From Escherichia phage HY126: DNA of 64,000 nucleotides. Shown here piece after piece: positions 7,145 through 55,321 of the stretch. The position numbers were made by a program, and so were the translations under genes. The stretch lies in the sequence record PP658200.1; one strand, given 5' to 3'. Position 1 is the first letter of the stretch. Each line of letters begins with the position of its first letter. The notes under the pieces were generated by a model. That model ran no database searches. It was not told where the DNA came from and worked only from the letters and a program-made list of their open reading frames with translations.

Positions 7145-7776
7145 TGTTCGCCTCGTAACATGGCACCTAGTGCACCGCCAGGGTGGAACTTAAGGAAGTC
7201 ATTAGAGGTAAATCCACGTTCAGACGAAAGGTTGATAGCAAACGTATCGATAAGCGCTAACAACAATGTAGTGGACATAGTCGGAGCCAGAGAATTCTCA
7301 TCAACCTCTACTGCGATGCCTGTACAGAACGTATAATCAAAAAGAGCTTCGTATTCTTGTGGAATGTCCGGGTTACAATGCAACAGAATCTGTTTGACGT
7401 TCGGACGAATCATTTTAAGATGCTTAGCCACGCCTATCATTTCTTCAGTTTTACCAGAACGACTAATATGAATCAACACATCATTAGGCGCAATGAATCC
7501 TGCATCACCGTGAGAATAATGCCCAGTGTTCAAGTACATACTCGGGATACCGAGTGAAGCAAATGTCTCAGAAGCTTTAGTTGCAATATTAGCATTCTTA
7601 CCAACACCTGTAATAATTACTCGGCTTTCATAATTACTAAGTCCTGGGCGTCGAAGAGTTTCTAGAATAGCATTATAACGAGCAGGGTTTTGACTAATTA
7701 CTTTGGCCATAGCGGCCAAAGAAGAAGCTTGTTTTATGATTGCGTCAATAGCGATAGTAATAGGAGTAGTTTTCAT
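7141..7776 (-). CDS. SIS-domain sugar-phosphate isomerase, KdsD/GutQ-type (arabinose-5-phosphate isomerase-like)
   Basis: ORF track 211 aa; VIITGVGKNANIATKASETFASLGIPS, HGDAG, ISRSGKTEE, PTMSTT pattern typical of KdsD-type SIS domains; no CBS domains. Confidence 0.75.
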   Translation of the reverse strand: MKTTPITIAIDAIIKQASSLAAMAKVISQNPARYNAILETLRRPGLSNYESRVIITGVGKNANIATKASETFASLGIPSMYLNTGHYSHGDAGFIAPNDVLIHISRSGKTEEMIGVAKHLKMIRPNVKQILLHCNPDIPQEYEALFDYTFCTGIAVEVDENSLAPTMSTTLLLALIDTFAINLSSERGFTSNDFLKFHPGGALGAMLRGEQ

Positions 7777-10586: not shown

Positions 10587-10606
10587 AATGGGACCGAAGT
10601 CCCATT
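10587..10606 (-). terminator. Stem-loop AATGGGAC-TTCG-GTCCCATT 3' of regA
   Basis: 8-bp perfect stem with UUCG tetraloop directly after regA stop; followed by TATAAT; weak U tract. Confidence 0.5.
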
Positions 10607-10609
10607 GCT

Positions 10610-10978
10610 TTAATTACCAATTGTATATTTTGCTTTCAAAGTCCAGTCATCTTTCTGTTTAAAAGAGATAACACGGAAGTTATTAGTCAGGCCAAACAGA
10701 TCTTCACGAGCAGAGTCTTCAATAACAATCAATCCCCATTCTTCAAGCAACTGAGCAATCGAATCACGTCGCTGATAGTCTTCACCGTCAATATCAACCT
10801 GACGTCCGTCCATACGCAACATTTCTTTAAAGTGGACGATATAGTATTTACCTTGCTTTTGGAGGATATGACAAGACTGGTAAAGGACTTTATCCTTGTT
10901 ATTAGCGATGCCCATACGGGTCAAAGTCTCTTTGACTTTCAGAAAATCTTCAGGGTTCTTCAATTTAATTTCAATCAT
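10610..10978 (-). CDS. regA: RegA translational repressor
   Basis: Matches T4 RegA (MIEIKLKNPEDFLKVKETLTRMGIANNKDKVLYQSCHILQK); start taken at fourth codon ATG (track start 10987). Confidence 0.9.
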   Translation of the reverse strand: MIEIKLKNPEDFLKVKETLTRMGIANNKDKVLYQSCHILQKQGKYYIVHFKEMLRMDGRQVDIDGEDYQRRDSIAQLLEEWGLIVIEDSAREDLFGLTNNFRVISFKQKDDWTLKAKYTIGN

Positions 10979-17956: not shown

Positions 17957-18172
17957 TTATCTCATTAAATTAAAATAAAAACGTCCATCCTCTTCAATAC
18001 AGAACTCATACTCAACCGGAGTCCCATTTATCGAAAATGACACGTCATGTGGGTTCAAAGGGTCGATGTCAAAATTAATTTTAAATTCACGACCCAACAG
18101 TTTTACCAAATAAGGGATTGCTTCGTCAAAAGGTTCTTCTAAGTAGTTAGAGATGTCAATTGTCATCCTCAT
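17957..18172 (-). CDS. Hypothetical protein
   Basis: Track ORF 17957..18250 trimmed to internal ATG 18172 that overlaps the gene 55 stop by 17 nt. Confidence 0.4.
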
Positions 18173-18713
18173 ATAAAAAATCCAAACTAGGCGAATCGCT
18201 AACAACTTCCTTCTTTTCAGCCCCAGGAGCTTTATAAGCGGATTCTTCATAATGCGTCATTTTATCGTAGATGTCTTGAATAAACGTTTCATCTACCAAC
18301 GCTACCATATCATCGTCATGACTGTCGTAGACGTTATGAACGAAGTAACTATATTTCTTTGCAACTTCCTTACGCTCTTTTTTGATACGTTGGACAAAAG
18401 CATTAAAACAAGCTCGAGTTATGTATGCATGTGGGTTATTGTACTTAGTTTCGTCGAAATTATGAAGTCCCTTAATAGAGGCTTCAATCCCATCTGCAAT
18501 CATCTCCTGCTTCCAAGACTGGGTATATCCTGAAAAGTTGAAACGTTTGGACAGGCCTTCGGCGATAAGCATAATTGCTAAACCGATGGTATCATTCTGA
18601 CGAATAATTTTGTTTGGGTCTTTATTATTTAAGAGCTCCTTTTTCCACTCGATTATAGCGGCGAGAAGCTCTTTATTATTCACATAGTTATTTTTAGGTT
18701 TTTGTTCAGTCAT
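18156..18713 (-). CDS. 55: Late sigma factor
   Basis: ORF track 185 aa; near-identical to T4 gp55 (NYVNNKELL...[33 protein letters not shown]). Confidence 0.95.
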
Positions 18714-18734
18714 AAGTACCTCTTAGCTCAATTC

Positions 18735-18769
18735 ATAGGTCTATTATATCATAATATTTAGAGACCTAT
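18735..18769 (-). promoter_or_regulatory. Hairpin-embedded -10 element upstream of gene 55
   Basis: Inverted repeat ATAGGTCT/AGACCTAT flanking TATAAT (minus sense), followed by AAGAGG SD and gene 55 ATG. Confidence 0.4.
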
Positions 18770-18785
18770 CTTAAAGCACGAGATA

Positions 18786-19055
18786 CTATCGGAGCAAACA
18801 ATAAGCCTGAAACACTTTTTCCATTAAACGTTTGAACTCATGGATATCGATATAAAGCTCAGTAAGACCGGCATTATAAAGAAAATCTAAAAAGTTCTCA
18901 TGTGTTTCGTTATAGTCGCCTTCGTTTAATTGAGACACATGAGTTTCCCAAAAACCAACACCTTTAACGAATGGAAAATACGTGACTTTCATGTATTCGT
19001 CAACATAAAATTCGCCCAGCTTTTCTTCAGTTATACTGATTCGAGTTAATTTCAT
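18786..19055 (-). CDS. Hypothetical protein
   Basis: ORF track 89 aa. Confidence 0.5.
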   Translation of the reverse strand: MKLTRISITEEKLGEFYVDEYMKVTYFPFVKGVGFWETHVSQLNEGDYNETHENFLDFLYNAGLTELYIDIHEFKRLMEKVFQAYCLLR

Positions 19056-19279
19056 TCTAGTTCCTTTGCTGCTTCAAGAGCAGCATCTAACGAATCAAAT
19101 TGGTCAACGAAATCGATATTCAACGCATCGTCAGCCGTAGCATATAGCCACCATTGTTTGAATTCATATTCTAGGATAAATCCAAGCCCTTCAATCTGAG
19201 AAAGACCTAGACTATTTGTACCAACTTCGTAACCGGCTAGACGCAGGTCATTAATCAAAGTTTCTGTTAATACGCTCAT
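19052..19279 (-). CDS. Hypothetical acidic protein
   Basis: ORF track 75 aa; overlapping start/stop with neighbours. Confidence 0.5.
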   Translation of the reverse strand: MSVLTETLINDLRLAGYEVGTNSLGLSQIEGLGFILEYEFKQWWLYATADDALNIDFVDQFDSLDAALEAAKELE

Positions 19280-19608
19280 TTTACCGCCTTAACAATTTTC
19301 AGGTCAACGAATTTTTTCTTACGTTGATTTTTCATACGACGGATAGTCTTTTCAGAGATTTCATGTTTCTGATAAGCTTTAGATTCAACACCAAATGCAG
19401 CAACGTCAAATTCAGAAAGAATATATTGTACTAGAATTTCACGAATAGAATTACGTCCAATTTTCTGGTCGTGTTTTTGCATGATTTCATAAAGACGGAA
19501 TTCCCATGCGTCAAGAACTTGAGGAGTAACAATATTGCCGGATTCCAGAAGAGCAACAACTTTATCGAAAGCGAAAGAATTAACTACGTTTTTGATTTTA
19601 GTAGACAT
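19276..19608 (-). CDS. Hypothetical protein
   Basis: Track ORF trimmed to ATG 19608 (GAGGAAAATAAT-ATG) downstream of promoter cassette. Confidence 0.5.
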   Translation of the reverse strand: MSTKIKNVVNSFAFDKVVALLESGNIVTPQVLDAWEFRLYEIMQKHDQKIGRNSIREILVQYILSEFDVAAFGVESKAYQKHEISEKTIRRMKNQRKKKFVDLKIVKAVK

Positions 19609-19645
19609 ATTATTTTCCTCGGTTATTTTATTATCCAATGATAGA

Positions 19646-19674
19646 ATTATACTCTGCTCTCAAGAGTTTATATA
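19646..19674 (-). promoter_or_regulatory. Early-type promoter cassette (degenerate -35, TATAAT)
   Basis: Near-identical copy of the 50061..50095 cassette (CTCTTGAGAGCAGAG-TATAAT) but with the -35 degraded to TATAAA. Confidence 0.4.
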
Positions 19675-19914
19675 CTATTTTTTAAGCATGAAAAGTAAGT
19701 AATTTGTATCACGTGGAGTAATATCAACACCCATATCAAAGATGCCTTTATAGATTGGGTATTTGTTTTCGGTTGTATCGAAGCTGAAACTATTTCCATC
19801 ACAACTAACAGTAATAGCATCTGTTAAAATGTCATACTCAATCCTAACAATTGAATCCCCAATTTTAACGTCGAGGTGTTTTTTGAATTTGATAAAATCT
19901 AATTCTTGGGCCAT
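19675..19914 (-). CDS. Hypothetical protein
   Basis: ORF track 79 aa. Confidence 0.5.
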   Translation of the reverse strand: MAQELDFIKFKKHLDVKIGDSIVRIEYDILTDAITVSCDGNSFSFDTTENKYPIYKGIFDMGVDITPRDTNYLLFMLKK

Positions 19915-19936
19915 GATATTTTCCTCATTTTAAGAC

Positions 19937-19975
19937 GATAGGAAGATAATAACATGTCTTCCTATCGTTGTACAT
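19937..19975 (-). promoter_or_regulatory. Promoter/stem-loop cassette
   Basis: Minus sense TGTACA-17-TATTAT with inverted repeat ATAGGAAGA/TCTTCCTAT flanking the -10; GAGG SD and ATG follow. Confidence 0.45.
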
Positions 19976-19977
19976 TA

Positions 19978-20190
19978 TTAACCGAACTTTTTAGCGCCTT
20001 TCCAGCCTTCATACATAGCTGCGCAAGTCAATAGCACAGCGTGTTGGCATTCTTTGTATTTGTAAATCCAGAACCAACGTAAAAAGTCTTCGTCCTCAAC
20101 ACCGTTGAGTTTCATATTGGCAAAGAATTCGGCACGTTCTTCACGAAGTTGCCATGACACAATATTTTCAGGATTCATTTTGTGTTCCAC
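19978..20190 (-). CDS. Hypothetical protein
   Basis: ORF track 70 aa. Confidence 0.5.
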   Translation of the reverse strand: MEHKMNPENIVSWQLREERAEFFANMKLNGVEDEDFLRWFWIYKYKECQHAVLLTCAAMYEGWKGAKKFG

Positions 20191-20309
20191 GCCCCATTTT
20201 CATCGATGAACTTAATCCAGTCATTTACGGACCATTTAGTTGTATCACCCTTTGGATTAACATTTAAAGTATATAATCCCTGCTTAAAAAGCATTCGTTT
20301 GATATTCAT
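20175..20309 (-). CDS. Hypothetical small protein
   Basis: Track ORF 20175..20402 trimmed to ATG 20309 (GAGG SD) to avoid overlap with 20317..20610. Confidence 0.35.
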   Translation of the reverse strand: MNIKRMLFKQGLYTLNVNPKGDTTKWSVNDWIKFIDENGAWNTK

Positions 20310-20316
20310 AATTTCC

Positions 20317-20610
20317 TCAACTGTAACGATAACATTCATTAGCTTTACGTTTGGCTTCAGTATGAGAAGTATTATAATCATAATCTTCTTTACTGTAAAC
20401 ATCTTTTTTCAACTTACGAACTTCTTTGCGGAGTTGTCGATTCATTTCGTTCTTGACTTCAGAATCAACGCCTTTCATACGTTTCCATTTATCTGAGCGG
20501 AATATGTTTTCAACCATGTCTTTGTGGCTAACACCGTCAGGAGCTTTACGTTTACCAAAATAGTCATAATCACGAACTTTCAAATCTTTACGACGATACG
20601 TTTTACCCAT
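20317..20610 (-). CDS. Hypothetical basic protein
   Basis: Track ORF trimmed to ATG 20610 preceded by GAGG. Confidence 0.45.
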   Translation of the reverse strand: MGKTYRRKDLKVRDYDYFGKRKAPDGVSHKDMVENIFRSDKWKRMKGVDSEVKNEMNRQLRKEVRKLKKDVYSKEDYDYNTSHTEAKRKANECYRYS

Positions 20611-20617
20611 AAGTACC

Positions 20618-20866
20618 TCAGAGGTTGATTGATACAATACGTTTGATAAAATTCACTTCACTTACTGAAAGGTCTTTAAGACCGATTGATTCTAAACGCT
20701 GAGTAAGAGTCAACATTGGGATATAGTCCCATTGTGTTTTAGACGTTTGATAAGTACGGACGCCATTAGCAATTTCAACATGCAAATCGGAAATGGTAAC
20801 GAATACTGGACGTTCGTTGTTTACATTAAGAGTTAGAACAACTTTCTTTGAATCTAAACTAATCAT
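20618..20866 (-). CDS. Hypothetical protein
   Basis: ORF track 82 aa. Confidence 0.5.
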   Translation of the reverse strand: MISLDSKKVVLTLNVNNERPVFVTISDLHVEIANGVRTYQTSKTQWDYIPMLTLTQRLESIGLKDLSVSEVNFIKRIVSINL

Positions 20867-21165
20867 GGCTTAATTTCCTTCGCAATTGAACAGAAGATAC
20901 CACGGTCACAAAGCATTTCACCAATTTCTGGATATTTGATTGAACGGTACCAAACATCCAGGCTTGAAACTCTGGTTATCTGTATTGCATTACCATTGAC
21001 AGAATAGTACTGGTCGACCTTAATTTCTTTATCTTCAATTGTCATTTTATTTTCCTCTATAGTAGATGGTTTAATCTTAACACATCTATTGAGGATGTAA
21101 ACTGTTTTATGAAAATATTTTCGATTTGAGAGGGGCACAAGGAGATAGTGAAGTGAAGATTCCAA
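20863..21165 (-). CDS. Hypothetical protein
   Basis: ORF track 100 aa. Confidence 0.5.
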   Translation of the reverse strand: MESSLHYLLVPLSNRKYFHKTVYILNRCVKIKPSTIEENKMTIEDKEIKVDQYYSVNGNAIQITRVSSLDVWYRSIKYPEIGEMLCDRGIFCSIAKEIKP

Positions 21166-28145: not shown

Positions 28146-28175
28146 ATTATACTCCAACCATCCTTGGTTGTAAAC
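28146..28175 (-). promoter_or_regulatory. Promoter/stem-loop cassette (GTTTACA, hairpin CAACCA-agga-TGGTTG, TATAAT)
   Basis: Minus sense GTTTAC-18-TATAAT directly after the stop of 28180..29115; repeated at 29142 and 30202. Confidence 0.5.
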
Positions 28176-29141: not shown

Positions 29142-29170
29142 ATTATACTCCAACCATCCTTGGTTGTACA
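29142..29170 (-). promoter_or_regulatory. Promoter/stem-loop cassette
   Basis: Minus sense TGTACA-17-TATAAT with CAACCA/TGGTTG hairpin; near-identical to 28146 copy. Confidence 0.5.
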
Positions 29171-34832: not shown

Positions 34833-34958
34833 TTTACCATACTCGTTTCAATAAGATTCACTATGCCGTTTACCATGTTATAAGTAAACATCGGATAATT
34901 GTATTGTACTACAACATAAGCGATAAGCAAAAGTTTCATTTTGTTCTCCGTTTGTTTT

Positions 34959-34997
34959 GATAGGACTACTATAACATAGTCCTACCAAGATGTAAAC
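34959..34997 (-). promoter_or_regulatory. Promoter/stem-loop cassette
   Basis: Minus sense GTTTAC-18-TATAGT; inverted repeat TAGGACTA/TAGTCCTA around the -10; -35 abuts the stop of 34997..35233. Confidence 0.5.
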
Positions 34998-35233
34998 TAC
35001 CGATTGTGTTTTAAATGTTGATAAAGTTCTTCAACTTGTTTAGGGTCCAAAACAATTAAGTCATTTTCTTGACGAAGATAAATCCATCCCTTATCCCCAG
35101 GGCCATTTTTACAAAACATCACCGTCGTCATATCGTCATCTTCAGCGCTTTCAGGTAAAAGTTCAAGTACACCGTCTTCAGATTTTCCAGTATAATCGTA
35201 AAGCATAATATCCTCACATAATCTCGTTAACAT
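34997..35233 (-). CDS. Hypothetical acidic protein
   Basis: ORF track 78 aa. Confidence 0.45.
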   Translation of the reverse strand: MLTRLCEDIMLYDYTGKSEDGVLELLPESAEDDDMTTVMFCKNGPGDKGWIYLRQENDLIVLDPKQVEELYQHLKHNR

Positions 35234-35448: not shown

Positions 35449-35459
35449 CTGCTAAATGC

Positions 35460-35488
35460 CAAAAAGCCCCAACCATAAGGAAGGGGCT
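35460..35488 (-). terminator. Rho-independent terminator 3' of rI
   Basis: mRNA-sense AGCCCC-12 nt loop-GGGGCU followed by U6, 7 nt after the rI stop. Confidence 0.65.
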
Positions 35489-35494
35489 AGTAAA

Positions 35495-39032: not shown

Positions 39033-39079
39033 CCTCTAGTTGACAGGTCTATAGTAACACAACTAGAGGAGAAGTAAAC
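39033..39079 (-). promoter_or_regulatory. Promoter/stem-loop cassette with SD in 3' arm (upstream of regB)
   Basis: Minus sense GTTTAC-ttct-CCTCTAGTTG...TTACTATAGA...CAACTAGAGG then 10 nt, ATG; 10-bp inverted repeat. Confidence 0.5.
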
Positions 39080-45381: not shown

Positions 45382-45661
45382 AATTTTCTAAATCTGTTGA
45401 TTCAATAGCTTTTTTACGAGCTTCAGCGTGTTCTTCTTCAGTTAATCTACGTTTAAACTTGACCCAAACATTATGGTCGAAACCTGTTGTCGCGTATAAT
45501 AACAGAGCACCAACGAATAACAAAAACGGTGATAAAAATACACAACCAGGAACACCGTCCATGCCATAGGCCTTTTGTAATACTGCAACAGAAAGCACAG
45601 CATAAAAAGGTGATGTAAGTATCGTTAAAAGGCCAATTCGGTTGGTTTCGGATAATTTCAT
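45356..45661 (-). CDS. Membrane protein, C-terminal ENFVKECR motif family
   Basis: Track ORF trimmed to ATG 45661 (GGAG SD; MKLSETNRIG...); two TM helices; ends ENFVKECRGK. Confidence 0.55.
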   Translation of the reverse strand: MKLSETNRIGLLTILTSPFYAVLSVAVLQKAYGMDGVPGCVFLSPFLLFVGALLLYATTGFDHNVWVKFKRRLTEEEHAEARKKAIESTDLENFVKECRGK

Positions 45662-45680
45662 AATATTCTCCTCATGTTTA

Positions 45681-45718
45681 ATAGGACTACTATAACATAG
45701 TCCTATCAGTTTGTACAC
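45681..45718 (-). promoter_or_regulatory. Promoter/stem-loop cassette
   Basis: Minus sense GTGTACA...TGTTATAGTAGTCCTAT with inverted repeat ATAGGACTA/TAGTCCTAT. Confidence 0.5.
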
Positions 45719-45919
45719 TTATTTTGACATTTCTTCGATGTCACGACGATACCCATCACGAACTTCACGAAGAGCTTCAAGGCCACACATAGGCTCGATA
45801 CCAGTAATGTGAACTTGATTAATCTGATACTCTACATCTTCTAACTGAGCGAAAACATAACGACGTTCTGCTGCACAACCAGGTTTAGCTTTACCGAAAC
45901 GTTTATTCAAAGTAGTCAT
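45719..45919 (-). CDS. Hypothetical protein
   Basis: Track ORF (GTG start 45937) trimmed to ATG 45919 with GGAG SD. Confidence 0.45.
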   Translation of the reverse strand: MTTLNKRFGKAKPGCAAERRYVFAQLEDVEYQINQVHITGIEPMCGLEALREVRDGYRRDIEEMSK

Positions 45920-46984: not shown

Positions 46985-47224
46985 TTAAATTTCACGACAT
47001 GCGATATCATATTCATCCCAGAGGTCATCGTGTGAAGCCTCTACCAATGGAACGATTGTACCATTTATGTCTTCATTATAAGGGCAAATTGTACAGTGTG
47101 CGTCTTCGAATCGGATACCTTTGTGTTCAGATTTTTTATAACGCATATCGAATATCTTTGCAAATTTTTCACGAGTAATGGTTTTACCAACCACTTTGGT
47201 TCCGATACTTTCGTAATAAATCAT
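46985..47224 (-). CDS. Hypothetical protein
   Basis: Track ORF trimmed to ATG 47224 with GGAG SD; CTICPY...IACREI. Confidence 0.45.
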   Translation of the reverse strand: MIYYESIGTKVVGKTITREKFAKIFDMRYKKSEHKGIRFEDAHCTICPYNEDINGTIVPLVEASHDDLWDEYDIACREI

Positions 47225-47243
47225 TGTGGACTCCATTTAATTT

Positions 47244-47282
47244 GATAGGACTACTATAACATAGCCCTATCTTGTTGTAAAC
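47244..47282 (-). promoter_or_regulatory. Promoter/stem-loop cassette
   Basis: Minus sense GTTTACA...TGTTATAGTAGTCCTATC. Confidence 0.5.
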
Positions 47283-47286
47283 TGTT

Positions 47287-47484
47287 TTAGCAAGAATAAC
47301 TAGACGATACCCAGCCTTGAACAGTGATACTATTGTGGGATAATGAGATCGCGTCCTGGAGATTCAGACCTGCGTTATCTTCAATCCATAACGTAACTTC
47401 TTCGCGTTCTTCTGTTGCAATTTGGAACAGGTTTTCCAGAGCAGCTACTGCCGTACGTACAGCACAATCTAATTCACGAGACAT
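47287..47484 (-). CDS. Small acidic protein, member 1 of C-terminal W-x-SS-x-x-C triad
   Basis: ORF track 65 aa; ends QGWVSSSYSC. Confidence 0.5.
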   Translation of the reverse strand: MSRELDCAVRTAVAALENLFQIATEEREEVTLWIEDNAGLNLQDAISLSHNSITVQGWVSSSYSC

Positions 47485-48811: not shown

Positions 48812-49382
48812 ATTCTCTACATTCCATAATAAATTGCTCAAGGATTAAATTGTTAGTGAAATTAGGACTAACAACCATAGTTTCATAAAGCGCATCAATA
48901 GCACTTAAAGCATCAACTCTTTTAAGCAAAAGCTTGCCTTCATACATAGTTTCAGAATCGACGATTAACGTAAAGTAATATTTTTTATTATCGACTAGAA
49001 CTTCTGTATCGATATAAAACATATTAGACCTCAGAAGCTTATCTCTAAAACCATAATAATCTTCTGAATGTTCACTGATATATTCCCATTCAGTGTTTAA
49101 ACAACAAACAGACCACGTAGGAGCGACGAAATCAGTGAATCTAATATCATGGTCTGCAACTAGTTTAGCAATAGCTCCGATATCATGAATCATAATACCT
49201 GGGGCTAATAAAGATTTTCTGCTATGGCTAGCCGTTTTCTCGGTGGTCTCATAAGAAGCTGACCAGTACCATTTACGTCCGGTTGCAACATATCGTAATG
49301 AATCAACTAAAGACGTAGGTGGATTTACCTTATCTCGGAACTCTTCGAACATTGAGTCAATATCATTATTTTGGTTTCGCAT
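48780..49382 (-). CDS. Hypothetical protein with LEQFIMECRE motif near C-terminus
   Basis: Track ORF trimmed to ATG 49382 (MRNQNNDIDSMFEEF...). Confidence 0.5.
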   Translation of the reverse strand: MRNQNNDIDSMFEEFRDKVNPPTSLVDSLRYVATGRKWYWSASYETTEKTASHSRKSLLAPGIMIHDIGAIAKLVADHDIRFTDFVAPTWSVCCLNTEWEYISEHSEDYYGFRDKLLRSNMFYIDTEVLVDNKKYYFTLIVDSETMYEGKLLLKRVDALSAIDALYETMVVSPNFTNNLILEQFIMECREYVKANPVHAN

Positions 49383-49431
49383 GTTAACTCCTTTATTATC
49401 CAAAAGGAGGACCGGAGTCCTCCGTATTATT

Positions 49432-50025
49432 TTATTTCAAAGAGTTAATATATTCTTGTACATCAGCAGAAGTGGTTTCGACACCGGCTGGAGTACCATT
49501 GAACGTTTCAACACGAGTCAGAGTGTCTTCGATATCAACCTTAGTCAGCGCAGCGATTTCAATTACATCATCGGCCGTAGAGATACCAAGGGCATTGGCT
49601 GCTCGAGTTTCACGAATGTATTCGAGTTTGATTGCCAGATTCTGACGAGCATCATCAAGTTCAACCACCTTACGAGCAATTTCAATTCGCATAGCGGCAT
49701 ACCCGTCAGCTTTTGTATTAAGTTGTTCGGCAGTTCGACGATACAGAAGACCAAGCTTAGCATGCATGGTAACATCTTGTCCTTCAGCCAGGAGCTTACG
49801 AATTTCACGTTCCTTAGAAGCGGCTTGCTTATTCTTTTCAATAACAAGTTCGCGAATACGTTTTTCTTCATTAATAGATTTAACAGAAGCCGTTTTTAGT
49901 TCTTTGATTTGGGTAATCAACTTATCTGCAGCTGCGTTATACTGTTCTTCGACAGTCAGATTTTTAGCCATAGCAGTACCCAGTTTAGTGCGGATGAATT
50001 CAACAAGTTTCTTCAGTGTGTTCAT
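49432..50025 (-). CDS. Coiled-coil protein (PspA-like resemblance only)
   Basis: Track ORF (TTG start) trimmed to ATG 50025; ~200 aa predicted all-helical. Confidence 0.55.
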
Positions 50026-50060
50026 ATTATTACCTTTCAATTGGTGGTTTATTATCCAAT

Positions 50061-50095
50061 GAGAGCATTATACTCTGCTCTCAAGAGTTTGTAAA
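50061..50095 (-). promoter_or_regulatory. Early-type promoter TTTACA-17-TATAAT with GAGAGC/GCTCTC repeat
   Basis: Read directly; canonical spacing; inverted repeat brackets the -10; duplicated at 19646..19674. Confidence 0.45.
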
Positions 50096-50323
50096 TTATT
50101 TTTTAATCAAATTGACATAAAACTTGGCGTCTTCGGGGTGCATGCCTTCACAGTATTCTTCAACCATGAACTTCTTAACAGCTTCATAAGGACCGCTCAG
50201 ATTAAGCTCAGTTGTCCAGAACTTGGAATCTTGGACTGAATCGATACGAACTTCAGGGTGTCGGTTGCGAATAACTTCTTCGGTGTATTCATAATCAACG
50301 ACATCAATACTAACTTTAGCCAT
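50096..50323 (-). CDS. Hypothetical protein
   Basis: ORF track 75 aa. Confidence 0.5.
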   Translation of the reverse strand: MAKVSIDVVDYEYTEEVIRNRHPEVRIDSVQDSKFWTTELNLSGPYEAVKKFMVEEYCEGMHPEDAKFYVNLIKK

Positions 50324-50342
50324 TTTGTTTTCCTCTTGATTT

Positions 50343-50380
50343 GATAGGACTACTATAACATAAACTTACTTAGATGTAAA
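50343..50380 (-). promoter_or_regulatory. Promoter cassette TTTACA-17-TATAGT + AGTCCTATC
   Basis: Minus sense; -35 overlaps the stop codon of 50370..50534. Confidence 0.5.
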
Positions 50381-50534
50381 TTATTTCAACGTCACCTTTA
50401 GCTGCTTTATAACCTTCAGCCCAAGATACAACAGAGTTTTTATCTGAGGATTCAAATTCAGGCATTGGGCTTTCGCCAATGTTCACACAGTATGTTTCTT
50501 CATTTTCGTCAAACCAAATAATTAAAGTAGTCAT
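50370..50534 (-). CDS. Hypothetical 54-aa protein
   Basis: Track ORF trimmed to ATG 50534 (MTTLIIWFDENEETY...). Confidence 0.4.
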   Translation of the reverse strand: MTTLIIWFDENEETYCVNIGESPMPEFESSDKNSVVSWAEGYKAAKGDVEIIYI

Positions 50535-50555
50535 TTTGTTTACTCCTCTGTAGTT

Positions 50556-50593
50556 GATAAGTCTATAGTAACACCGTCCTTGGCGTTTGTACA
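50556..50593 (-). promoter_or_regulatory. Promoter cassette TGTACA...TTACTATAGACTTATC
   Basis: Minus sense; -35 abuts stop of 50594..51097. Confidence 0.5.
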
Positions 50594-51097
50594 TCATTTA
50601 TTTTTAATTTTGCAAATTTTTTCTGCTTCAGCAATTGCAGCGTCAATGATGCTTTGTGCAATTTTATTACTAGTTGACCTGGCAATCACACTAAGAACAA
50701 TTTCTTTTTCTTCACCACCCCAACCCCAAGTCCTTTGTTCGTGGGTACCTTTAACTACAGCTGAAACTTCAACAGAACGTCCACCATCAGAAGTTTTAAC
50801 ATCTACAACCCAATCACCATCTTTCTCTTCTACCCTTGATTTATCCCAAGAAATACTAATATATGATTCGCTGTCAATAGAAGTCGCCGGGTTTTTCTCT
50901 ACCGTAAGACCTTCACTTTCCAGCCATTCAATAGTATTTGCGCATAAATCAGAAGAACACCTCATCGGAAACCTGCAAGATTTTTCACCTTTAGCTGCAG
51001 TGTTATACATCTTTTCTAAAATACGCTTTTGCACGTTTTTAAAAATAGTTTCAGCAGATTCTTCAGATTTTTTATTCAGTTCGGTATAAAGACTCAT
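50594..51097 (-). CDS. Hypothetical protein
   Basis: ORF track 167 aa. Confidence 0.55.
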   Translation of the reverse strand: MSLYTELNKKSEESAETIFKNVQKRILEKMYNTAAKGEKSCRFPMRCSSDLCANTIEWLESEGLTVEKNPATSIDSESYISISWDKSRVEEKDGDWVVDVKTSDGGRSVEVSAVVKGTHEQRTWGWGGEEKEIVLSVIARSTSNKIAQSIIDAAIAEAEKICKIKNK

Positions 51098-51154: not shown

Positions 51155-51186
51155 AACTTTTTCAGTAAGTTATAGACCCCCTAATG

Positions 51187-51202
51187 GGGACCGAAGTCCC
51201 CA
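51187..51202 (-). terminator. Stem-loop GGGGAC-UUCG-GUCCCC immediately 3' of 51207..51833
   Basis: 6-bp GC stem with UUCG loop 5 nt after stop; no U tract, so may be a stability element rather than a terminator. Confidence 0.35.
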
Positions 51203-51206
51203 TTCT

Positions 51207-51833
51207 TTACTTACGAGTTTTTGCATACTGAGCAGCGTCAGCAGCCAAACGACCTGCCTGACGAAGTTTTTCTTTAATCGCATCGTGAAGTGGTTGAGTA
51301 TACTTCAAACCTTCGATAGTCAAATAAAGACGATAAAGGTCTGGGGTATCAAGGTTGTTGATATGTTGGCCATTACGAAGACTGTTGAATTCACGAACGA
51401 GTGAAGATGTATCGGATTCAATATCACGAACAAGCGAAGATAGTTGTTTATATTTTTTTTCCAGGCTAGAAGTATCAAACTTAAGAGCAGGAGCTTTAGG
51501 AGTTGCTTTTACTTCCGGCTTAGGCTCAGGTTTTGCTATTGCTTTAGGGGTCGCAGGTTTAGGAACGGTAGGAGCAGGTTTTACTTTAGGCGAACCCGAT
51601 TTAGCAGAAACACCGCCACTAACAATATCTTTGAATGCTTTAGAAGCTCTGTAATATTCTTTTTGGCTGGAAGTGTCGATACCATACATGGCTTGAACGT
51701 TTTTGAAAAACTCTGTACTAGTTTTTGTACCAGAAATAGCATCGTAAGCAGCTTGCCATTTCTCTTTTGTCATACGTACACCGGCTTCGGTGATTACTTC
51801 CGTTTCGGCTAAAAATTCATTAAAAGTATACAT
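51207..51833 (-). CDS. Internal-protein-like (leader MYTFNEFLAE) with Lys/Pro/Ala-rich central region
   Basis: ORF track 208 aa; CTS-like leader; SPKVKPAPTVPKPATPKAIAKPEPKPEVKATPKAP low-complexity segment. Confidence 0.6.
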   Translation of the reverse strand: MYTFNEFLAETEVITEAGVRMTKEKWQAAYDAISGTKTSTEFFKNVQAMYGIDTSSQKEYYRASKAFKDIVSGGVSAKSGSPKVKPAPTVPKPATPKAIAKPEPKPEVKATPKAPALKFDTSSLEKKYKQLSSLVRDIESDTSSLVREFNSLRNGQHINNLDTPDLYRLYLTIEGLKYTQPLHDAIKEKLRQAGRLAADAAQYAKTRK

Positions 51834-51868: not shown

Positions 51869-51876
51869 TATTTATA
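51869..51876 (-). promoter_or_regulatory. Late promoter TATAAATA
   Basis: Exact TATAAATA on minus strand ~36 nt upstream of the 51833 ATG. Confidence 0.5.
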
Positions 51877-51877
51877 C

Positions 51878-51906
51878 AAAAAAGCCCCAACCTTTCGGAA
51901 GGGGCT
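51878..51906 (-). terminator. Rho-independent terminator (AGCCCC-loop-GGGGCU + U6)
   Basis: GC stem and six U on the minus-strand transcript, 3' of the ORF-free 51950..52200 region. Confidence 0.7.
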
Positions 51907-51949
51907 ATATACCTTGTCGGGGTTTCCACCTACTAAGGCAAGTGTTTGT

Positions 51950-52554: not shown

Positions 52555-52633
52555 ATTTTCCTCACTTAAAGTTGGTGCCTCTAGAAAGATTTGAACTCTC
52601 ACCATTAACCTTAGAACGATTATATGCTATCCA

Positions 52634-53299
52634 TTACACTATAGAGGCAATTAAATTATTTACAATATCTTCTTTATAAACTTCAGCATAATGAAGTTCA
52701 TATATTTCCCATCCTAATGATTTTATAATATCATGGCGTTCTTTATAATAAGGGGCCAAAATCTTTTTCTTAGGATTGGAGTAATGTTGGTTTCCATTAA
52801 CTTCAATAATAATCTTTTTATCTATTAAAGCAATATCCGTGCAATACGCTCGGTTTTTAACCGGTTGGTATTCTTCAATAAATGAAATTCCGTTTTCTAT
52901 TAATTTAGATTTCAAAAATTCACAAGGCACAGATTTAAATTTTGTATTTTTCTTCCAAGGATGTTTATCAGGGTTTTCATTCAACCATTTTTTCCGAGCA
53001 TTAGATATTTTTATTCTAGATTCCTCAGAGTGTTCTCTACCTAATGAAGCGGCTGACAATTTTTGTCTAGTCTCTTCCGAAATTACTACAGGGACACCAG
53101 TCTTTTTAGATACAACATACTGGTTTAAATTACCTGAAGCTATACGTGCTTTATTCATTGCTGCAATGGCTGATTTAGAACTTTCTTTATACAATTCCAA
53201 TTTAGGGTTGGATTTACACCATCTAGTGTGGTTAGCCATCCATCCTTTAGGTTTATTAGAAATATCAAATTCCATATTACAATGTTTACAAATGCTCAT
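52634..53299 (-). CDS. Freestanding homing-endonuclease-like protein (Zn finger + NUMOD-like repeats + DUF559/Vsr-like nuclease)
   Basis: CKHC...HTRWC; ISEETRQKLSAASLGREHSEESRIKISNARK; IIEVNGNQHY...ELHYAEV; start at ATG 53299 (track start is TTG 53305). Confidence 0.6.
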   Translation of the reverse strand: MSICKHCNMEFDISNKPKGWMANHTRWCKSNPKLELYKESSKSAIAAMNKARIASGNLNQYVVSKKTGVPVVISEETRQKLSAASLGREHSEESRIKISNARKKWLNENPDKHPWKKNTKFKSVPCEFLKSKLIENGISFIEEYQPVKNRAYCTDIALIDKKIIIEVNGNQHYSNPKKKILAPYYKERHDIIKSLGWEIYELHYAEVYKEDIVNNLIASIV

Positions 53300-53373: not shown

Positions 53374-53445
53374 CTGGCGCACTTGGACTCGAACCAAGAT
53401 AAAGGAGTTAACAGCTCCCCGTAATAACCTTTATACGATGCACCA
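53374..53445 (-). tRNA. tRNA-Asn (anticodon GUU), CCA not encoded
   Basis: Hand-folded: acceptor TGGTGCA/TGCGCCA, D-arm with GG, anticodon stem GGGAG/CTCCT loop CTGTTAA, T-arm CTTGG-TTCGAGT-CCAAG. Confidence 0.8.
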
Positions 53446-53451
53446 TTTGTT

Positions 53452-53526
53452 TGGTGACCCTGGCTGGTTTCGATCCAGCTACCTATCAGTTATGAGCTGA
53501 CAGCTCTCCCATTGAGCTACAGGGCC
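53452..53526 (-). tRNA. tRNA with CAU anticodon (Met, or Ile if lysidine-modified), CCA encoded
   Basis: Hand-folded: acceptor GGCCCTG/CAGGGTC, D-arm GCTC-AATGGGA-GAGC, anticodon loop CTCATAA, T-arm GCTGG-ATCGAAA-CCAGC, 3' ACCA. Confidence 0.8.
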
Positions 53527-54962: not shown

Positions 54963-54991
54963 TTTATTTCTCCATTTACTCATTTTGTTTT

Positions 54992-55030
54992 GATAGGACT
55001 ACTATAACATAGTCCTATCAGCGTGTAAAC
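54992..55030 (-). promoter_or_regulatory. Promoter/stem-loop cassette
   Basis: Minus sense GTTTACA...TGTTATAGTAGTCCTATC; -35 abuts stop of 55034..55321. Confidence 0.5.
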
Positions 55031-55033
55031 TAC

Positions 55034-55321
55034 TTACAGAAGAGTTTTTGCAATAATTTTAAGCTGAGCTACAGAAATGTGCTTAGCTTTAAACAGTGCA
55101 GTCTCTTCAGCCGGAGAGATAACAATAGTAGCGCCATCTTTCTTAGCGGACCACCCGTCTCCTAAGTAAACAGTACCTTTTACTTCTTCGCCGTCAGCTA
55201 GACTAATCATTGGTTTACCCTCACGGCCTTTGTTTGCTTTAATAACTTCGGAAGTAAGGGTTGCTTCAGTCAGAGTAGAAACGTTAGCAACAGGTGATAT
55301 AAATTCTTTATAGGTTTTCAT
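55034..55321 (-). CDS. Internal protein I-like (MKTYKEFISP leader), positional ipI
   Basis: ORF track 95 aa; CTS leader; lies just upstream of 57B as ipI does in T4. Confidence 0.7.
   Translation of the reverse strand: MKTYKEFISPVANVSTLTEATLTSEVIKANKGREGKPMISLADGEEVKGTVYLGDGWSAKKDGATIVISPAEETALFKAKHISVAQLKIIAKTLL

Follow-up and report, generated by a model that had tools for sequence, protein, structure and literature searches.

Two near-identical early-promoter/stem-loop cassettes upstream of unrelated genes in Escherichia phage HY126: probable members of an old sub-family kept alike by exchange

The 64,000-nucleotide stretch of Escherichia phage HY126 analysed here (PP658200.1; the whole stretch is referred to below as the window) carries nearly the same short sequence upstream of two genes that lie about 30 kb apart. 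A first-pass annotation described this sequence as a duplicated 5' regulatory region, and the locus raises the question of what the repeated element is and why its two copies are so similar. In our assessment it is probable that both sites belong to one sub-family of T4-type early-promoter/stem-loop (PeSL-type) cassettes, and that exchange keeps the copies alike. The 50-kb cassette precedes the orthologue of RB69/T4 gene e.6 (49432..50025, minus strand; 197 amino acids, phrog_1203, function unknown), and the 19-kb cassette precedes the orthologue of gp55.2 (19276..19608, minus strand; 110 amino acids, DUF7570, phrog_1475); the gene names for both loci were taken from the RB69 annotation. The two proteins were unrelated, as had been claimed, with zero BLASTP alignments at E-values up to 100. 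The window has a G+C content of ~37% and carries nearly all of its genes on the minus strand. Megablast of positions 49000-51000 and 18700-20700 gave 98-99% identity to many Mosigvirus genomes, and by this similarity the window is assigned to Mosigvirus, as an RB69-like T4-type phage (Straboviridae, Tevenvirinae).

The near-identity of the two 5' regions was confirmed. A search for the 43-nt pattern with up to three mismatches returned two sites only, at 50048-50090 (minus strand, no mismatches) and 19627-19669 (minus strand, two mismatches), and the pattern had no match in 100 dinucleotide-preserving shuffles. Ungapped extension enlarged the similarity to 62 nt at 90% identity (19627-19688 against 50048-50109), reaching into the A-rich 3' ends of the upstream open reading frames (ORFs), both of which end in KK followed by the stop codon. 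The two core mismatches, 50066/19645 (G/T) and 50063/19642 (C/A), both lie within the right arm of an inverted repeat. When the 21 intergenic promoter cassettes of the window were aligned on the -10 hexamer, this pair was the most alike of 210 (51/58 identical positions, median 28/58), as its reported extreme similarity would imply; the pair was nonetheless no outlier, since the next-ranked pairs, from another sub-family, reached 50/58, 46/58 and 45/58. The likeness exceeds the generic -35/-10 consensus because the shared sequence takes in the spacer and the transcribed leader, and it is well past that consensus, yet not unique in degree.

The e.6 copy is complete in the window. It spans 50026..50108 on the minus strand, from an A-rich tract over the stop codon of the upstream Frd.3-like gene (50096..50323, minus strand; 75 amino acids, PF05798, E-value 1.3e-38) to the base preceding the e.6 start codon, and its coding strand reads TTTACA-AACTCTTGAGAGCAGAG-TATAAT-GCTCTCATTGGATAATAAACCACCAATTGAAAGGTAATAATATG. 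The -35 hexamer TTTACA, reported as intact by the first-pass annotation, was found at 50090..50095; with its 17-bp spacer and TATAAT it scored 11/12, the best sigma-70-like match between 44 and 56 kb. The A/T-rich tract holding the upstream stop codon is GATTAAAAAATAA (50096-50108). The -10 hexamer TATAAT (50067..50072) lies inside a hairpin loop, AGAGTATAAT, between a left arm TGAGAGC in the promoter spacer (50077..50083) and a right arm GCTCTCA (50060..50066), which covers the discriminator up to the likely start site, predicted as the A at 50060. With the flanking base pair, the inverted repeat comprises 8 bp, TGAGAGC(A)/(T)GCTCTCA, or TGAGAGCA/TGCTCTCA. The leader runs from AAAGG to ATG (50037-50023), with the Shine-Dalgarno (SD) sequence at 50037-50033. 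Read-through RNA from the Frd.3-like gene would carry the hairpin, and the read-through sequence folded into it at -15.6 kcal/mol (z-score -2.9). The promoter's own transcript would lack the left arm and was predicted to be unstructured (-2.2 kcal/mol); the own 5' leaders of the two cassettes (-2.2 and -1.3 kcal/mol) folded no better than shuffles. There was no masking of the SD sequence in the e.6 copy, whose right arm stops at 50060 and whose SD bases were unpaired with the region before the -10. The GenBank records of ATK47 and ATK48 label this site as a host-like promoter.

A further pair of short complementary sequences was observed beside the left arm. The near-invariant pentamers ACTCT (50084-50088) and AGAGT (50071-50075) occupy the same positions in all family members, and their helix would exclude the main stem. 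The ACTCG/CGAGT pair of Marfavirus represents a double change; it is a single case and may be due to chance.

The copy upstream of 55.2 (19609..19688, minus strand) is decaying in the window: its -35 is spoiled where an RB69ORF075c-like accessory gene (19675..19914, minus strand; 79 amino acids, phrog_11314, no match in a Pfam search) adjoins it, and two mismatches break its stem. The A/T-rich tract GCTTAAAAAATAG (19675-19687) holds the TAG stop codon of the upstream ORF, the -10 TATAAT (19651-19646) is kept, and the SD sequence GAGG (19620-19617) precedes the start codon (GAGG...ATG, 19620-19606). The -35 had been given as TATAAA; the hexamer at the 17-bp spacing is in fact TATATA (19674-19669). 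The left arm is TGAGAGC (19662-19656) and the right arm TCTATCA (19645-19639). A simple sigma-70 scan did not call this copy, and no hairpin was present in its fold (-5.9 kcal/mol, z-score +0.4). The stem is intact in RB69 and PhAPEC2, and the RB69 copy folds into a hairpin. The exact form found in the window had no exact match in 50,697 phage records when queried with the 87-nt cassette. The ORF075c-like gene sits between two different promoter cassettes, 19915-19990 and 19609-19688. The former holds an early promoter (19934..19974, minus strand) with a 12-bp stem around its -10, ACGATAGGAAGA/TCTTCCTATCGT (-18.6 kcal/mol, z-score -5.1), and it probably supplies transcripts for both the ORF075c-like gene and 55.2. 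As the 55.2 promoter is decayed, transcripts that start at the 19974 promoter and read through probably serve gene 55.2.

The cassettes were compared with the published systems. The kind of cassette is already known, and both RB69 copies are predicted early promoters since 2006. Arbiol et al. 2010 described the PeSLs of RB49/phi1 as an upstream stop codon in an A/T-rich tract, -35, -10, SD sequence and ATG, with a stem-loop in one of five positions, most commonly between the boxes or overlapping the -10, and with G-T pairs marked (PMC2839356). One such stem-loop cut lacZ expression like a strong terminator, and neighbouring PeSLs recombined to give mini-circles, with one crossover within the loop (PMC2839356). 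Comeau et al. 2014 reported PeSLs in PST/T4 and nt-1/KVP40, including degraded 'half' PeSLs (PMC4122927). The order of parts is the same here, from the stop codon in its A/T-rich tract through -35, -10, stem-loop and SD sequence to the start codon; the stem-loop likewise overlaps the -10 and contains G-T pairs, and many copies likewise lie in regions of small accessory genes, bordering insertions, deletions and replacements between close relatives. In the window, we found promoter boxes ~17 bp apart, the stop codon in its tract, a stem over the -10, an SD sequence with start codon, and many bordering copies; the 55.2 copy, with TATAAT kept, TATATA as its -35 and a broken stem, fits the published degraded or 'half' PeSL (PMC4122927). 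Several features differ. The PeSL papers cover other phages and do not treat Mosigvirus; their -35 is TTGACA, as against the T4-type TTTACA here, and their stems are polyG/polyC, as against GAGAGC/GCTCTC. In PST/T4, the stem-loop lies just upstream of the promoter, whereas here it surrounds the -10. Neither the sub-family AAACTCTTG-arm-AGAGTATAAT-arm' nor its covariation across genera appears in those papers, and a limited literature search found no description of the sub-family or of PeSLs in Mosigvirus.

The cassettes also resemble T4-type early promoters. These share the GTTTAC(A/T) -35, the A-rich UP-like tract, TATAAT and C-rich positions before the start; the cassettes here show GTTTAC(A/T) at -36 to -30, an A-rich tract near -42, a TATAAT-like -10 and an early-gene orthologue on the same strand. 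Nolan et al. 2006 predicted 57 early promoters in RB69 (PMC1524935), among them Pe:72069 (score 25.3; e.6 orthologue) and Pe:42515 (score 8.9; 55.2 orthologue) (PMC1524935, additional file 3), which are the direct orthologues of our two sites; the motB promoter of T4 (7168-7219) belongs to the same sub-family. The RB69 list has no terminator and no middle promoter at the coordinates of Pe:72069 and Pe:42515 (PMC1524935). These sites were treated as promoters only, and stem-loops, sub-families and exchange were not described (PMC1524935). Early sigma-70 promoter activity is thus presumed from the consensus and from the published predictions for the orthologues; the earlier description of both sites as promoter modules is supported.

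To what extent the stem is maintained could be judged from its relatives. The arms form a 6-8-bp inverted repeat bracketing the -10 hexamer, and the arm pairs observed were GAGAGC/GCTCTC, GAGAGA/TCTCTC, GGGACC/GGTCC(C/T), GGGAGC/GCTCC(C/T), GGGAGT/ACTCCC, GGGGTC/GACCCC, GGGGCC/GGTCCC, GGGATC/GGTCCT and GAGGAC/GTCCTC. Across 25 distinct sequences, 97.7% of the arm cells were paired, compared with 84% after column shuffling and no more than 53% with the partner slid by 1-3 columns, statistics that do not represent probabilities because the sequences are related. Two-sided changes were present in five of the seven stem pairs. The 23 non-Watson-Crick cells comprised 19 G·U on the sense strand, one C·A, one G·A and two C·U; two of the four that are not G·U come from the window's own 55.2 copy. 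The sense strand folded better than the antisense strand in 24 of the 25 sequences. The stem is therefore maintained, and in this sub-family it looks like a structure of the sense strand, that is, of the read-through RNA. The covariation across genera, with its G·U imperfections, is to our knowledge the best sequence evidence that selection acts on the stem as a sense-strand structure.

The sub-family was found well beyond the window. The frame GTTTACAAACTCTTG-[arm]-AGAGTATAAT-[arm'] occurs at about 3-4 places per Mosigvirus genome (ndd, the pseT region, 55.2 and e.6), and the further copies known from relatives at ndd and in the pseT region fall outside the window. RB69 has both of the copies studied here (39/43 identity), and the close relative PNJ-6 carries one before ndd and a fourth in the pseT region, besides 55.2 and e.6. 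Hundreds of other T4-type phages, T4 (7168-7219) among them, were matched more weakly in a BLAST search with the 87-nt cassette; the T4 motB promoter and the e.6 promoter of Tequatrovirus slur03 have the full frame with arms. An IMG/VR pattern scan in which the arms were left free returned 30 stretches, including Dhakavirus and Gaprivervirus genomes, and these precede ndd, motB, 55.2-like, e.6-like, pseT-region and other small early genes. Cassettes of the sub-family were also present at ndd in Kanagawavirus CIP9 and at 55.2 in Marfavirus VAC36. In the 55.2 cassettes of Dhakavirus and Marfavirus and the e.6 cassette of slur03, the arms differ yet remain complementary. Across the sub-family, AACTC(T/G), the loop (A/T/C)GAGTATAAT and a GGA directly behind the stem are near-invariant. 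On these sequence matches, the sub-family is spread over at least six genera (Mosigvirus, Tequatrovirus, Dhakavirus, Gaprivervirus, Kanagawavirus and Marfavirus). Because orthologous cassettes exist in other genera, relatives carry two further copies and RB69 has both, the family is old; what the comparison marks as recent is decay and, probably, exchange within Mosigvirus.

The distribution of arm sequences is in keeping with such exchange. The Mosigvirus copies at ndd, 55.2 and e.6 share GAGAGC/GCTCTC arms, as against GGGGTC, GGGACC, GGGAGT or GAGGAC arms in their orthologues in other genera, and the pseT-region copy retains GGGAGC arms, as in its own orthologues. Shared arms at three loci are the pattern expected from homogenisation of some paralogues within a lineage. 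The 55.2 locus is itself polymorphic in Mosigvirus. PhAPEC2 has a 48-nt exact e.6-type cassette including TTTACA; PNJ-6 has an e.6-type left half with TCTCTC on the right, giving a C·T mismatch; RB69 and phiE142 have the compensated variant (C/T)GAGAGA...TCTCTCG; and the window has an additional, private C-to-A change. With a 74-nt locus-specific query, the phage collection gave exact matches to the e.6 type in 27 records, to the PNJ-6 type in 6 and to the RB69 type in 2, both from the same phage. In IMG/VR, scans keyed to the locus-specific leaders yielded too few Mosigvirus loci to survey a population. From these comparative patterns and the known behaviour of PeSLs, we infer that exchange between cassettes probably explains the near-identity of the e.6 and 55.2 copies.

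Gene insertions and deletions abut both cassettes. The window, RB69, PNJ-6 and p000v carry the ORF075c-like gene. PhAPEC2 lacks it, and there 55.3 abuts an intact 55.2 cassette, as in Dhakavirus; in p000v the gene has a different 3' end and the -35 is spoiled. A metagenomic relative has an extra 93-amino-acid ORF between frd.3 and the e.6 cassette. T4 has 55.3/55.2 without a cassette and a different, A/T-rich one at e.7/e.6, and T4 and slur03 differ in their e.6 cassette. A comparison with relatives for the ancestral copy gave no simple answer; the arrangement of PhAPEC2 and Dhakavirus, in which the ORF075c-like gene is lacking and the TTTACA of the 55.2 cassette is intact, looks older than that of the window. 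The simplest history would be that the 55.2 cassette is old, that an inserted ORF075c-like gene with its own promoter damaged the -35, and that the cassette is now decaying in the window. The sequence TTGGATAATAAAAT precedes 55.2 in Mosigvirus (in the leader; region 19632-19638 of the window) and in Marfavirus, and it forms the 3' end of the 55.3 coding region in T4. The 55.2 junction may be the original home of this part of the repeat, in which case e.6 would have received that stretch.

Other accounts of the likeness were weighed against exchange within an old sub-family. All cassettes of the window have GTTTACA, TATAAT-like boxes, A-rich upstream tracts and an SD sequence, and the two sites could share these as a generic T4 early-promoter consensus without being specially related; however, the identity also spans two parts with little consensus, the 17-bp spacer and 20 nt of the leader, and the score of the pair, the median of the 210 cassette pairs and the empty shuffles led us to reject this account as extremely improbable. 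A recent private duplication, with one promoter copy pasted before a second, unrelated gene, would suit copies that are 41/43 alike and rank first among the cassettes of the window. It was rejected as very unlikely, as more copies are present in relatives, RB69 has both, more than 140 Mosigvirus records have the e.6 cassette at 95% identity or above, and both loci have family members with different arms in other genera. Of the two origins proposed by the first-pass annotation, recent duplication is thus contradicted by the relatives, and recombination between modules stands as the best explanation. A MotA-dependent middle promoter has a Mot box, (a/t)(a/t)(a/t)TGCTT(t)A, centred near -30 and 11-13 bp before TAnnnT, and lacks a -35. 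The 19-kb copy could also be read as such a promoter, as the upstream ORF has TGCTTA at its 3' end, with TAAACT 12 nt further on; CATGCTTAAAAAATAGTATATAAACT fits TGCTT-N12-TAnnnT at this copy only. We regard this reading as very doubtful, given that the 5-mer TGCTT is expected more than 100 times in 64 kb, that RB69 conserves no such arrangement and has no usable -10 at that spacing, that the e.6 copy has no TGCTT, and that the RB69 middle-promoter list has no entry there (PMC1524935).

With regard to mechanism, the proposed cassette would run from the A-rich tract over the upstream stop codon through a GTTTACA-type -35, a 17-bp spacer holding the left arm, and TATAAT to the right arm over the discriminator up to the start site, followed by a short unstructured leader with SD sequence and start codon. 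Host sigma-70 RNA polymerase would start ~7 nt downstream of the -10, at the final base of the right arm, so that the cassette's own mRNA would lack the left arm and be unstructured. Read-through RNA from the upstream gene would hold both arms and form the hairpin, which may attenuate read-through or mark or stabilise a 3' end, thereby insulating neighbouring cassettes; the role as attenuator or insulator is proposed by analogy with RB49/phi1. At the DNA level, the cassettes would act as 45-60-bp homology patches in the same orientation, in a phage with very active homologous recombination, and would therefore be expected to exchange sequence by gene conversion, holding copies nearly identical, and to form junctions for the gain and loss of small accessory genes.

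Three further readings of the hairpin compete with a role as attenuator. The stem may be an RNA processing or stability element, which caps the 3' end of the upstream message after cleavage of the A/U-rich leader or sets a decay boundary between cistrons. As the stem has no U-tract, the possibility that it acts in RNA 3'-end formation or stability must be taken seriously beside termination, and it is also in keeping with the sense-strand-specific pairing, the lack of any terminator call and the conserved GGA(U/G)-A/U-rich stretch directly after the stem. The cleavage is itself a proposal, however, and GGAG, a RegB-type motif, is present in some genera only, with GGAU in the window; we consider this reading possible, though not the favoured one. 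Alternatively, the inverted repeat may act in DNA, as a cruciform or hairpin that offers the -10 in single-stranded form or as the target of a junction-cutting or recombination protein at hot spots. The PeSL authors raised a DNA-binding or recombination role for the stem-loop and mapped one crossover to a loop (PMC2839356), insertion and deletion junctions lie at the cassettes, and the cassettes of the window overall fold equally on both strands. Against this, the imperfect pairs of the sub-family are nearly all G·T on the sense strand only, and as a sense G·T is an A·C on the other strand, they would weaken a two-sided cruciform. Extrusion is inefficient for stems of only 6-8 bp with loops of 8-10 nt, and a sequence-specific protein site is not expected where arm sequences vary freely; a role in DNA is therefore unlikely. 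Finally, the hairpin with the -10 in its loop could be a distinct strand-specific RNA element, and not a recombination by-product or plain attenuator, that is conserved over at least six genera and, through its near-invariant parts, couples the fate of the upstream message to the firing of the embedded promoter. We regard this as quite unlikely; if true, upstream-message processing, decay or polymerase pausing would be tied to the promoter, a phage or host factor might recognise the element, and early genes of host takeover (ndd, motB, the pseT region, 55.2 and e.6) would be marked by it as a regulon.

Several results weigh against the preferred reading of exchanging PeSL-type cassettes with an attenuating hairpin. 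The sequences used for covariation are related. Over all cassettes of the window, the two strands folded equally well (p = 0.25), which limits the sense-strand claim to this sub-family. No U-tract follows the stem of the e.6/55.2 family (UUGGAUAAUAAA), and no terminator was called at the cassettes by the scan performed here or in the RB69 TransTerm list (PMC1524935); classical intrinsic termination is doubtful for both reasons. The attenuator role is an analogy drawn from one tested RB49/phi1 stem-loop, and the start site, promoter strength and hairpin effect are predicted. The haplotype series at 55.2 (e.6-type, PNJ-6, phiE142, RB69) would suit stepwise, compensated mutation as well as recombination. 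An A/G site after the stem was the same at 55.2 and e.6 in the six genomes for which both are known, and this was not confirmed more widely from the database lists, in which several records with the 55.2 'A' forms were missing from the exact matches for e.6.

Promoters within hairpins are known from other systems. In the T4 genes e, 49, soc and I-TevI, the promoter is embedded in a hairpin by which longer transcripts have their ribosome-binding site masked. The cassettes share this logic, in that a transcript starting in the hairpin would have no 5' arm and only read-through RNA would fold; they differ in that the hairpin of the focal copies ends ~25 nt before the SD sequence, which is left unmasked, and in that the classical cases are late or middle promoters and these are early. 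Coliphage N4 has hairpin-form early promoters with 3-nt loops that are read by its virion RNA polymerase. There, too, a promoter element lies within a small DNA hairpin, but the promoter here is an ordinary duplex sigma-70 promoter and the parallel is one of resemblance only; we know of no N4-like virion RNA polymerase encoded by T4-type phages.

For annotation, the cassettes show where real early transcription units lie in a Mosigvirus, and of the two copies one is in decay. For evolution, they offer a clean example beyond the phages in which PeSLs were described, of promoter cassettes as portable patches of homology, made alike within a genome and bordering the gain and loss of accessory genes; such exchange bears on the divergence of therapeutic T4-type phages. 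The covariation provides a simple, testable handle on what the stem-loops of PeSLs do. The results do not overturn current understanding, and the feature is real but ordinary.

The hairpin around the -10 is a general design of the early cassettes of this phage. The window has ~20 cassettes between 19 and 56 kb; among the other early cassettes, 14/20 had a helix around the -10 in the read-through RNA, and their own transcripts were unstructured throughout. In five other cassettes (minus strand; -35 at 21101, 35448, 39078, 42692 and 51153), the spacer pairs with the downstream SD sequence. The cassette at 39078, for example, has a 13-bp pairing, TCTCCTCTAGTTG/CAACTAGAGGAGA (-21.6 kcal/mol). In all five, read-through RNA would be the only transcript with a masked SD sequence.

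A second, larger sub-family of cassettes was observed on the minus strand at 34937-35003, 45658-45724, 47222-47288 and 54970-55036, with a degenerate copy at 50321-50387. It has the core GATAGGACT-ATGTTATAGT-AGTCCTATC and a 9-11-bp stem around the -10, its pairs reach 50/58, and its imperfect pairs are likewise G·T (47281, 34996). An exact 27-nt repeat, TACAACCAAGGATGGTTGGAGTATAAT, is present at 28146-28172 and 29142-29168 (minus strand); it represents a promoter type with a small hairpin, CAACC/GGTTG, within the spacer. The motB promoter of PNJ-6 is of a different type from the e.6/55.2 sub-family and resembles TACAACCAAGGATGGTTGGAGTATAAT, with CATCC/GGATG.

Two candidate classes for the cassette stems were rejected: a canonical intrinsic terminator, given a stem without a U-tract and no call by the scans or the RB69 TransTerm list, and a known RNA family, as Rfam was silent at the cassettes. 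Rfam covariance models over the window matched three tRNA genes only (52576-52648, 53374-53445 and 53455-53526, minus strand), where relatives annotate tRNA-Arg and tRNA-Met, with no match at either cassette. The late sigma factor gp55 is located at 18156-18713. Repeated G+C-rich hairpins were present elsewhere in the window and contrast with the promoter-embedded stems, which have no U-tracts. One pair, AGCCCC...GGGGCT at 35456-35489 and 51874-51907, is followed by a T-run on the minus strand and looks like a proper intrinsic terminator; a second pair, with the stem GGGACCGAAGTCCC, lies at 10590-10622 and 51183-51219.

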